DNA of 64,000 bases, from the NCBI GenBank assembly GCA_048939015.1, contig JBHLPW010000019.1, positions 13,765 to 77,764 of the forward strand, given 5' to 3'. This document shows, piece by piece, positions 37,306 to 40,321 of the stretch. Below the pieces are notes generated by a model, which saw nothing but the letters and a program-made list of their open reading frames with translations, was not told where the DNA came from and did not search any database. Source of the DNA: Promethearchaeota archaeon. Its GTDB lineage: Archaea > Asgardarchaeota > Lokiarchaeia > Sigyniarchaeales > SOKP01. How positions within the stretch are numbered: the stretch's first letter is position 1; each line of letters begins with the position of its first letter. The translations under genes and the position numbers were made by a program.

Positions 37306-38052
37306 ATGATTTGCGACGTTATAATAATTAAAGATGGATTACCTTTATTTTCTAAGAATTTTTCTAATTCAAACATTAATCATCTTCTATCTGAGGAAGA
37401 TAATCTTATTATGGTTTCGGGTTTTTTTTCTGCGTTAAACTCTTTTTCAGATTCATTCAATTCAATGGGTACAATTTCCGAGTTGAAATTATCAAATAAT
37501 AACTTAAAGTTATCTTTCTTAAAAGATTCAAATGTTCCAGATTTAATCTATCTCGCTACTTATGATAATAAATCGGAATTAAAATATGTGCAGCAATTCC
37601 TCCATACAATTTCCAATTTTTTTTTAAAAGAATATGGTATTGATAAAATCTCAAACTGGAATGGAAAGTTAAATTATTTCAAAAATTTCGAAAATATTAT
37701 TATAAGTTTTCTTGATGAAGAAAAGAGAAAAAATCAATATCAAACTAATGACAAAATATTTGAGTTCTTCAATAGTTTTGTGGATGATGATATTAAACCT
37801 TTAGAATTGAAAAAGGAGGAAGAAATTGTAAAAGAGATTCCTGAATTCTATGAATATATCCCGAACTTCACAACCTCAAAAAAAATTAATCCAAAATATT
37901 ATCTAACCGGAGATAATTCATGTAAAGTTTATGAAGAAATCGATGGTAAAAAATCTGTTAACCAAATATCTGAAGATCTAAATATTGATCAAACCCAAGT
38001 TTATAGTGTCTGTAAAAATCTCATAAAACTTGGATTTATCTCATTTAATTAG
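37306..38052 (+). CDS. Longin-like domain + C-terminal winged helix (Asgard eukaryotic signature protein)
   Basis: VIIIKDGLPLF...MVSGFFSALNSFS...ISELKL; C-terminal IDGKKSVNQISEDL...CKNLIKLGFI. Confidence 0.75.
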   Translation: MICDVIIIKDGLPLFSKNFSNSNINHLLSEEDNLIMVSGFFSALNSFSDSFNSMGTISELKLSNNNLKLSFLKDSNVPDLIYLATYDNKSELKYVQQFLHTISNFFLKEYGIDKISNWNGKLNYFKNFENIIISFLDEEKRKNQYQTNDKIFEFFNSFVDDDIKPLELKKEEEIVKEIPEFYEYIPNFTTSKKINPKYYLTGDNSCKVYEEIDGKKSVNQISEDLNIDQTQVYSVCKNLIKLGFISFN

Positions 38053-38188
38053 AGTATAAGTACTATTTTTACCAAAAAGTTAAAATTGATTATTTTGTTA
38101 CCCCCTCCATCACATTTTTTGGTTTCAAAAAACATTAATAATCACATATTATTTATTCATTTGTGTAAAAAAGTAGTAGGCGTTAAAA

Positions 38189-40321
38189 ATTTCATCATCA
38201 GCACAAAAACCATCAGCTATTGATGCTCTTATTGAAGAGCTAAAGAATATAACAGGATTGAAGTTAGATCAATACCAGAGAAAGTTCCTGGAAAAAAGAA
38301 TTGACTTTAGGATGAAAAATTTAAGCTTGGATTACTGTCAAGATTATATCACATATATAAGGCAGAATCCTTCTGAGATCAATCATTTCCTAGACAAATT
38401 TACAATTAATTATACATACTTCTTTCGAAATCTTTCTGTTTTCGAGAATTTTGAGAGATTTATCAATCTTTATTGTAATCAAAACAATAATAATAGGACA
38501 CTTCATATATGGTCAGCTCCTTGTGCCACTGGTGATGAGCCCTATACAATTGCCATGATTTTAGATCAGCTTAAAAGTAAAAACAAAAATTTTCCAGATT
38601 TTCATATAGTAGCTTCTGATATCGATCCTTCGGCTCTAAATATAGCTCGTAAGGGATTATATGGAGAATATGCGGTTCATGAAATTCCACATGTTTATCT
38701 TGAGCAATATTTCACGAAAAAGGATACAAAACTAGGTTCTCAATTTATATTAAATACAAGTATTAAAGAGAAAGTGGAATTCATACAAGAGGATATAATA
38801 AAAGGTCATCAAAATCATCAGAAATATGATGTTATTTTTTGTCGTAACTTTTTTATATATATCAATCAATTTGCTCGAGAAAAATTACTAAGAATTTTAG
38901 AATCTCGACTATATGATGGTGGATTATTAGTTTTAGGAGGATCAGAATCTATTCCAAAAAATTGTAGGTGTTTTGAATCAATAAATATGAGAGATAGATT
39001 ATATATTAAAAACTTACCTACTCAAGATATAAGTTTTAGAAACTCTGTTCCCTATTTGGCTAATGTTCAAAAGACTTCTATAGAAGGGAGGGAGAGAGAA
39101 AAACCAATAAATATAAGAAAACTTATACCTAATACTATAGAGATTAAAAAAATACAAGAAAAAACAGAAATTAAGGAAAATCTTAAAGAAACCTCTAAAT
39201 TTTTAGACTTTCCTGAAAAAGAAGTAAAAATACGTAAAGTAAACCAAAAAGAAATTATCCAAGATTTAAATGAACTCGAAAACATTGAGGCAGAAGTTAG
39301 AATTACTGGGATTGAAGTCAATAGTAGTTACAACGGATTTTTAAATGGAACTAAGAAGAACCAATTGAAAGAATCCGTAAAAAAAGACATAGAGAACAAT
39401 AAAGCTAACAATGAGTATGAAAGACGTAAAGAGTTGAAGCAAAGAGAATTAATTCTAGAACAAAGAGAAAAAATCATTGAAGAACGAATAGCCTATTTAG
39501 ATGGAAAGTACAAGAAAATAGAGAAAAAAAGGAAAGACATAGATAATACTCTTAAAAAAATAAAGAAAAAAGAAGAAGAAGTAAAAAACCGTATTGAAAT
39601 CTTAGAACGTCTTACTAAACAAGTGGAACAAAGAGAAAAGTTAGTTGAACAAAAAGAAAAGCAATTTGAGCGGCGTATACGGCAAGTCGGAGATTATACT
39701 AGGCAAATAGTTCATAATGAAGTTCTAATAAATGGGAAAAAAAATGGAGAAATTGAAAACAATCTCGAATTTGAGAGTTTTGATACGGAACGATTAGATC
39801 GAATTGATAATCCCAATAAAAATAAAGAATTAGTTATTCCTATGGGATATTATGCTTTGATTAATTCATTTGATAAAAATGAAACAGCAACTAAATTCAT
39901 TATTCAAGGATTAGGATCAGGTATAGCTTTAATTTTTAAAGATGCTGTGAACAACATTTTTGCTATATCCCATATTTCGTTACCTTCCTCATCCGCTTCT
40001 AAACAAGGTTATCATCTTCTTTTCCCGCATACTTTTGTGGATACTTCAGTTAAGGATTTATATAATTTTTTAATTTATAATGGTGCAAATAGCGCGAGCA
40101 TTGAGGCTCTTATAGTAGGAGGTGCGAAGCTATTTTTAGATTATGATATGACATATCAGGAAAATATTGATGCTGTGAAGAGAGAATTAGAAAAAATGCA
40201 AATAAGTATAGTAGGCGAAGATACTGGTGGATTAAGTGAACGTGCGATAATCTACGATACAATAAATGATTCTCTTCATGTTAAAAAGACTTGGGAATTT
40301 GAATATAGAAAAATTGCTTAA
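38189..40321 (+). CDS. CheR-type methyltransferase - coiled coil - CheD-like fusion protein
   Basis: CheR motifs TINYTYFFRN, IWSAPCATGDEPYTIAM, ASDID, DVIFCRN; EK-rich coiled coil; CheD motifs GLGSG...SHISLP...FVDTS...VGGAKLF...EDTGG. Tracked start is TTG at 38258, but the frame is open to ATT at 38189. Confidence 0.85.
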   Translation: MSSSAQKPSAIDALIEELKNITGLKLDQYQRKFLEKRIDFRMKNLSLDYCQDYITYIRQNPSEINHFLDKFTINYTYFFRNLSVFENFERFINLYCNQNNNNRTLHIWSAPCATGDEPYTIAMILDQLKSKNKNFPDFHIVASDIDPSALNIARKGLYGEYAVHEIPHVYLEQYFTKKDTKLGSQFILNTSIKEKVEFIQEDIIKGHQNHQKYDVIFCRNFFIYINQFAREKLLRILESRLYDGGLLVLGGSESIPKNCRCFESINMRDRLYIKNLPTQDISFRNSVPYLANVQKTSIEGREREKPINIRKLIPNTIEIKKIQEKTEIKENLKETSKFLDFPEKEVKIRKVNQKEIIQDLNELENIEAEVRITGIEVNSSYNGFLNGTKKNQLKESVKKDIENNKANNEYERRKELKQRELILEQREKIIEERIAYLDGKYKKIEKKRKDIDNTLKKIKKKEEEVKNRIEILERLTKQVEQREKLVEQKEKQFERRIRQVGDYTRQIVHNEVLINGKKNGEIENNLEFESFDTERLDRIDNPNKNKELVIPMGYYALINSFDKNETATKFIIQGLGSGIALIFKDAVNNIFAISHISLPSSSASKQGYHLLFPHTFVDTSVKDLYNFLIYNGANSASIEALIVGGAKLFLDYDMTYQENIDAVKRELEKMQISIVGEDTGGLSERAIIYDTINDSLHVKKTWEFEYRKIA

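Follow-up and report, generated by a model that had tools for sequence, protein, structure and literature searches.

Why would an archaeon join a CheR methyltransferase to a CheD deamidase domain whose catalytic Cys is gone, and which signalling system would such a protein serve? The question is raised by a gene at 38189..40321 (+) of a 64,000-nucleotide stretch of Promethearchaeota archaeon DNA that we call the window (GenBank assembly GCA_048939015.1, contig JBHLPW010000019.1, positions 13,765 to 77,764). The gene encodes a CheR methyltransferase followed by a linker and a CheD domain with Gly in place of the catalytic Cys. We find that the fusion defines a protein family, that the Cys is lost throughout this family, and that the protein most likely belongs to the ordinary chemoreceptor system of this archaeon.

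A family of CheR-CheD fusion proteins

The gene is a single uninterrupted frame of 710 codons plus stop, and translation, Pfam and full-length homologs agree on the order CheR, disordered linker, long helix and pseudo-CheD. Pfam identifies an all-alpha CheR_N domain at residues 11-61 (38219..38371 (+); PF03705, E 6.7e-07), a CheR S-adenosylmethionine (SAM)-dependent methyltransferase domain at residues 74-268 (38408..38992 (+); PF01739, E 5e-49) and a CheD match at residues 598-700 (PF03975, E 5e-14). The bit scores are 29.4, 166.8 and 52.8 respectively, compared to curated cut-offs of 27, 27 and 25, and the NCBIfam domain calls agree with those of Pfam.

The CheR part aligns with Bacillus subtilis CheR (PDB 5FTW, 134 bits) with the FFR, IWSAxCxTGxEPY, xxDID and CRNxxIY motifs in register, and among 60 family members the FFR, IWSAPCATGDEPY, ASDID and CRNFFIY motifs are invariant or near-invariant. 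The motifs for SAM binding and for catalysis (FFR, glycine-rich motif I, acidic post-I and RNxxIY) are all present, and the CheR fold is confirmed. An AlphaFold2 model built from 60 members of the family has a confident CheR (residues 10-293) and a confident CheD (534-710), with target TM-scores in Foldseek of 0.92 against 5FTW and 0.89 (rmsd 2.1) against chain C of the Thermotoga maritima structure 2F9Z (2F9Z_C). The CheD-fold domain without catalytic Cys corresponds to 39788..40318 (+), an assignment on which Pfam, NCBIfam, the 2F9Z_C alignment and Foldseek concur.

Between the two folded domains the model is disordered over residues 294-405, with a predicted local distance difference test score (pLDDT) of about 30. 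This stretch is rich in K, E, N and I, and we delimit it as residues 294-400 (39068..39388 (+)). It is followed by one continuous helix of 114 residues with a pLDDT of 77-90 (residues 401-514, 39389..39730 (+)), a length that is also the family median. The sequence-only reading of the window, an earlier note made from the letters alone, had described the linker as a coiled coil of about 100 residues; the helix is indeed about 114 residues long, and about 110 disordered residues have to be added to it. The helix is 51 % charged with a hydrophobic occupancy of 0.6-0.9 at heptad positions a and d. Because of these hydrophobic residues a coiled coil seems likelier than a single charged (ER/K) helix. 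Total linker length ranges from 141 to 279 residues in the 60 members.

In a homolog search over 5.8 billion proteins, full-length proteins of this architecture form about 110 clusters, with identities of 35-74 %, and every source-labelled cluster comes from an Asgard metagenome-assembled genome (MAG) or from a sediment or subsurface metagenome. Together with the Pfam matches and the folds, these clusters establish as real the fusion that the earlier note had proposed. One apparent full-query match in a bacterial locus (L055) was rejected, since it consists of several separate genes and no fusion. CheD is found in 16 of 151 sampled Asgard species genomes and the fusion is limited in that sample to this genus; the family is therefore patchy. 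Both domains come from well-known chemotaxis families, and databases already list fusion proteins, automatically named for example 'CheR family methyltransferase' or CheR/CheD; in the literature we found no paper describing the CheR-CheD architecture or the family-wide loss of the nucleophile.

The catalytic cysteine is lost across the family

When the domain is aligned with CheD of T. maritima (2F9Z chain C, E 1.2e-15), GLGSG comes to lie over GLGSC and SHISLP over AHVMLP. The position of the catalytic Cys27 is therefore occupied by Gly578, encoded by GGT at 39920..39922 (+), while the catalytic His44 is retained as His595, encoded by CAT at 39971..39973 (+). A contig from a different study spans 39887-40093 with zero differences, including the Gly codon.

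Among the 106 members whose alignment covers the site, the Cys position holds G in 84, S in 19 and E in 2, and the His position holds H in 85, N in 12 and Y in 9. A check of the active-site motif found Cys in no family member. An exhaustive HMMER protein search with the CheD domain gives the comparison with free-standing CheDs (140-260 residues), where 104 of 112 have the Cys and 109 of 112 the His. Among fusion-length proteins in the same set the residue at the Cys position is G (21), T (3), S (2) or D (1), and only two keep Cys. The third residue of the triad, which we take to be T. maritima Thr21, aligns with Ile572. This column is not diagnostic because it varies in free-standing CheDs as well (T 33, I 23, A 19).

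The Cys-to-Gly replacement is thus fixed across the fusion family and is neither a sequencing error nor a private mutation. The sequence-only reading had noted the GGT codon and had reserved the possibility of an error or private change for the case that a complete che system existed elsewhere in the genome and that homologs kept the Cys. Such a system does exist (see below) and the homologs do not keep the Cys: the independent contig is identical and 105 of 106 homologs have G, S or E. Lacking the Cys expected of an active deamidase, the CheD domain of the fusion is most likely a pseudo-enzyme.

The loss of the nucleophile has not been followed by decay of the domain. Averaged over pairs of the 60 members, sequence identity is 0.61 in the CheD domain and 0.58 in CheR, with 0.35 in the helix and 0.22 in the disordered stretch. 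In comparisons with five related genes, CheR has a dN/dS of 0.06-0.13 and the CheD domain one of 0.11-0.16, compared to 0.32-0.48 in the disordered part. The dead CheD domain is under purifying selection and, with the highest identity of any part of the protein, is conserved about as well as CheR, and the canonical CheD motifs all persist with the exception of the Cys. Phe649 in GGAKLF (40133..40135 (+)) is conserved in at least 80 % of the family. From our reading of the GGAxMF motif, this residue may be the counterpart of F102 of B. subtilis CheD, which together with M101 has a role at the interface with CheC and with a receptor mimic (PMC3513319).

The host genome encodes a chemoreceptor system

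The earlier note had called the protein an orphan, having seen no che genes nearby. The window indeed has none. The assembly to which the window belongs (4.86 Mb, 125 contigs, 94.9 % complete) has a chemosensory system: a genome-wide search found 21 signalling domains of methyl-accepting chemotaxis proteins (MCPs), a cheW-cheY-cheA cluster on contig 108, a cheB on contig 77 and a second, free-standing cheR on contig 34. In this 94.9 % complete assembly we found no second CheD, no CheF and no archaellin, and neither a Pfam search nor tblastn with a CheC of the same genus found CheC.

A heptad-spaced pair of sites, SASSEQQTAS and TASMEEITAT, is present in 17 of the 21 MCPs; it has the classical consensus of modification sites and includes encoded Gln. 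A pentapeptide (NWETF-like) tether is missing from all 21 MCP C-termini. Searching the linker of the fusion with the same consensus, even in a loose form, returned no site.

Several further observations concern these components. The EQQ/MEE site pair is almost invariant across all 21 MCPs. Many of these MCPs are short (e.g. L133-L145), and 13 that were aligned have, by eye, several apparent membrane spans at the N-terminus followed by a very short signalling hairpin of about 165 residues. At L039:4513-6549, the second CheR is 356 residues long, carries an insertion that separates FFRD from the IWS strand, and lies directly downstream of a Ras-family small GTPase with a C-terminal ribbon-helix-helix. 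The sole cheB (L012:1480-2616) stands alone beside ribosomal protein genes. It shares only 42 % identity with the cheB of G150, a genome of the same genus, where that gene is part of a cheB-cheD-cheC operon without counterpart in the host genome. No archaellum was found in the host genome, though Loki-type Asgard archaea show chemoreceptor arrays; for Lokiarchaeum ossiferum, putative arrays seen by cryo-tomography and a che gene set have been reported (PMC9834061).

The fusion is lost together with the receptors

In members 52-75 % identical, the gene order is kept: NTP-transferase, GHMP kinase, a longin-winged helix-turn-helix (wHTH) gene, the fusion, a 101-residue gene, a CDP-alcohol phosphatidyltransferase, and genes of 254 and 153 residues. 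We compared five genomes of the genus, namely the host genome and G150, G132, G008 and G049. Intact fusions are found in the host genome with its 21 MCPs and in G150, which has 7 MCPs, a full che operon and a fusion 65 % identical to that of the window. G132 lacks both MCPs and CheW, and has at the syntenic place a CheR-only frame of 278 residues followed by a CheD remnant of 81 residues. This decayed copy occupies 1570-2698 of locus L030 (G132:C23:27889-31758), and its linker and first half of CheD are deleted. G008 and G049 (99 % complete) have no CheW, no MCP above the Pfam cut-off and no fusion gene, and in both the longin-wHTH gene and the 101-residue gene abut, with the fusion gene cleanly missing between them.

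Outside this comparison, all 8 other carriers that we examined have MCPs, 1-14 each. In the BC3 MAG, a divergent member (32 % identity, Thr at the Cys site) directly follows cheB and an MCP gene lies 4.7 kb downstream. The fusion has been lost together with MCPs within the genus and intact copies occur only alongside MCPs. Because the genomes are few and related, this pattern is suggestive rather than statistical.

Relation to canonical CheD and origin of the fusion

Five of the 8 other carriers also have a cheB-cheD-cheC operon that encodes a CheD of 180-189 residues with GLGSC and SHILLP. This operon CheD is the nearest free-standing relative of the dead domain (42 % identity), and its presence in genomes that also carry the fusion makes the fusion a specialised paralog. 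The host genome and two others (G155 and G157) carry the fusion, and neither canonical CheD nor CheC was found in them; the fusion is therefore independent of CheC. Frames of 658-671 residues with 3-4 CheC-type repeats share contigs with che operons or with the fusion in related genomes (G151:C28:20788-21912, G153:C56:4216-5007 and G158:C2:4319-5431).

Two CheR-CheD proteins with a short linker, P0124 (403 residues) and P0131 (469 residues, from a Lokiarchaeota MAG), keep both Cys and His. They share with the fusion of the window the domain order, the archaeal group and related CheD domains, and they differ in a linker of only about 100 residues and in the intact GLGSC and His, because of which they are presumably active deamidases. 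These short-linker, Cys-keeping fusions look like the ancestral state. In a quick tree of CheD domains the long-linker dead forms make one group, with a Shimodaira-Hasegawa-like approximate likelihood ratio test (SH-aLRT) support of 94, and P0124 falls beside them. A tree forcing all fusions together has a likelihood 7.1 log units above the free tree and a p-value in the approximately unbiased test (p-AU) of 0.62. The data would thus be compatible with a single fusion after which the linker grew and the Cys was lost, though they do not prove it.

A proposed docking role and its alternatives

We hypothesize, with a probability of roughly 0.6, that the fusion is an MCP glutamate methyltransferase of the cell's own chemosensory system docked by its pseudo-CheD. 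The pseudo-CheD would keep the CheD fold and the surface that recognises the modification helices of the receptors, without deamidating them. It would dock the enzyme on receptor arrays through the approximately 110 disordered residues and a helix of about 17 nm that probably dimerises, and the docked CheR would methylate EE/EQ sites on the same or on neighbouring receptors. The dead CheD may in this way stand in for the C-terminal pentapeptide tether of E. coli that is missing from these MCPs. Binding of MCPs by the dead CheD, CheR activity and dimerisation of the helix are all steps that we infer. A docking role for the dead CheD was already suggested by the sequence-only reading and remains the best explanation. 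It has a precedent in B. subtilis, where binding of CheD to receptors and CheC counts more for chemotaxis than its deamidase activity (PMC3513319).

Several points weigh against this proposal. The host genome already encodes a separate CheR, so a second methyltransferase is not obviously needed, and CheR and CheD recognise overlapping regions of the receptor, which makes simultaneous binding hard to picture. The fusion sits in this lineage in a housekeeping gene order without che genes adjoining, and the phyletic pattern is based on few related genomes that are 94-99 % complete. Finally, His595 is retained and 19 of the 106 members have Ser where the Cys would be, leaving residual chemistry possible in some of them.

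The residual chemistry just mentioned can be extended to the proposal that the CheD domain is still a hydrolase, through another nucleophile or on another substrate. His595 and Ser577 are present, and the Cys site has Ser in the members just counted and Thr in a side group. Set against this, the majority residue, Gly, has no side chain, Ser577 is Ala in 13 members, 21 of the 106 have N or Y in place of the His, and no alternative residue pair is invariant, all of which makes a surviving hydrolase very improbable. Hardly more probable is the reading put forward in the earlier note, of a methyltransferase repurposed outside chemotaxis that acts on its own coiled coil or on another non-MCP substrate. 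The absence of che genes from the window and from the syntenic loci, the EE/EQ pairs in the helix, and a host genome in which archaellin and CheF were not found would all be consistent with such an enzyme. Self-methylation is disfavoured by a linker that has no consensus site and is the least conserved part of the protein, in a genome where 17 of 21 MCPs carry the paired sites. A substrate outside chemotaxis fits poorly with the loss of the fusion together with MCPs and CheW in the genus and with its linkage to cheB in the BC3 MAG.

The remaining alternatives keep the protein within chemotaxis. The dead CheD could mainly bind CheC, in which case CheC bound to phosphorylated CheY (CheY-P) would sequester CheR in an adaptation loop of the CheC/CheD type that acts on methylation. 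The cheB-cheD-cheC operon in 5 of the 8 other carriers, the conserved Phe at the CheC interface and the 2F9Z structure of CheD bound to CheC speak for this. We nevertheless consider it unlikely, as three carriers of the fusion have no detectable CheC and as, where CheC exists, a canonical CheD adjoins it. Alternatively the CheD domain could be a non-catalytic activator or 'reader' of receptors, so that the fusion would co-deliver two receptor-activating functions and tethering of CheR would be secondary. Binding of B. subtilis CheD increases the capacity of receptors to activate CheA (PMC3513319), the dead domain is strongly conserved, and Gln is encoded at the sites of 17 of the 21 MCPs. A long linker of conserved length (141-279 residues) is better suited to a tether than to plain co-delivery. 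We regard this activator role as doubtful, and the present data do not separate it from docking.

It is conceivable, as a more tentative refinement to which we give low odds, that the dead CheD is a substrate-trapping 'reader'. It would bind the still-amidated EQQ site (17 of 21 receptors) without converting it and park CheR one heptad off at the MEE site or on neighbouring dimers, so that methylation would be steered by the amidation state. If true, this would be a third mode of CheR targeting besides pentapeptide and tetratricopeptide repeat (TPR) tethers, specific to Loki-type Asgard archaea. Should the docking role hold, the fusion would be a natural separation-of-function CheD that only binds, like the mutant built by B. 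subtilis geneticists, and the non-catalytic role of CheD would become directly testable. The fusion would then also give an idea of the way in which Asgard archaea may organise receptor methylation.

Start codon and upstream gene

The interval that separates the TAG at 38177-38179 from the TTG at 38258 contains no ATG, GTG or TTG, and the CheR_N match starts well upstream of this TTG. The sequence-only reading had placed the start at an ATT (38189..38191 (+)), and comparison with related loci bears this out. Six of 8 related loci have a frame that begins just two codons ahead of the equivalent ATT or ATA, often after GGCGTTTTGGTGTAA, and the peptide that follows is conserved in relatives as KIS..S.NPSSIDALIEELK, which makes the ATT at 38189 the likely start codon. 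The GGTG part of GGCGTTTTGGTGTAA is conserved upstream in relatives (L040-L046 and L029 were compared) but is missing from the window and from its closest relative L040. Public gene calls put the start of the fusion gene downstream, at 38231 (ATT) or 38258 (TTG).

The upstream gene at 37306-38052 (+) has a weak longin-like domain and a C-terminal wHTH of the TrmB type, and its adjacency to the fusion is conserved. The longin-like part matches, with 33 % identity (E 2e-8), the C-terminal half of a gene of 270 residues that immediately precedes cheW-cheY-cheA on contig 108. A functional tie between the longin-wHTH gene and the fusion was set aside, as the gene stays in relatives without fusion and MCPs.

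Comparison with known systems

With the CheD deamidases of T. maritima (2F9Z) and B. subtilis the fusion shares the fold and the GLGS, SHxxLP, GGAxxF and DxGG motifs. It differs from them in the family-wide change of Cys to Gly, in the position of the domain, which follows CheR and about 240 residues of linker, and in a longer, highly conserved loop after the His (KQGYHLLFPHTF). With the CheR proteins of B. subtilis (5FTW) and Salmonella (1AF7/1BC5) it has in common the N-terminal helical domain, the SAM domain and all motifs, to which the fusion adds a C-terminal extension of more than 400 residues. Unlike the system of E. coli and Salmonella, where CheR is tethered by a pentapeptide, the MCPs of the host genome are without pentapeptide. 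The TPR-bearing FrzF and WspC are CheR proteins with an extra C-terminal interaction domain. Like the CheR-CheD fusion, these proteins and the CheB-CheR fusions (P0112-P0116) couple CheR to a further module by which receptor modification is directed or regulated; what sets the CheR-CheD fusion apart is that this module is a different receptor-modifying enzyme in a dead version.

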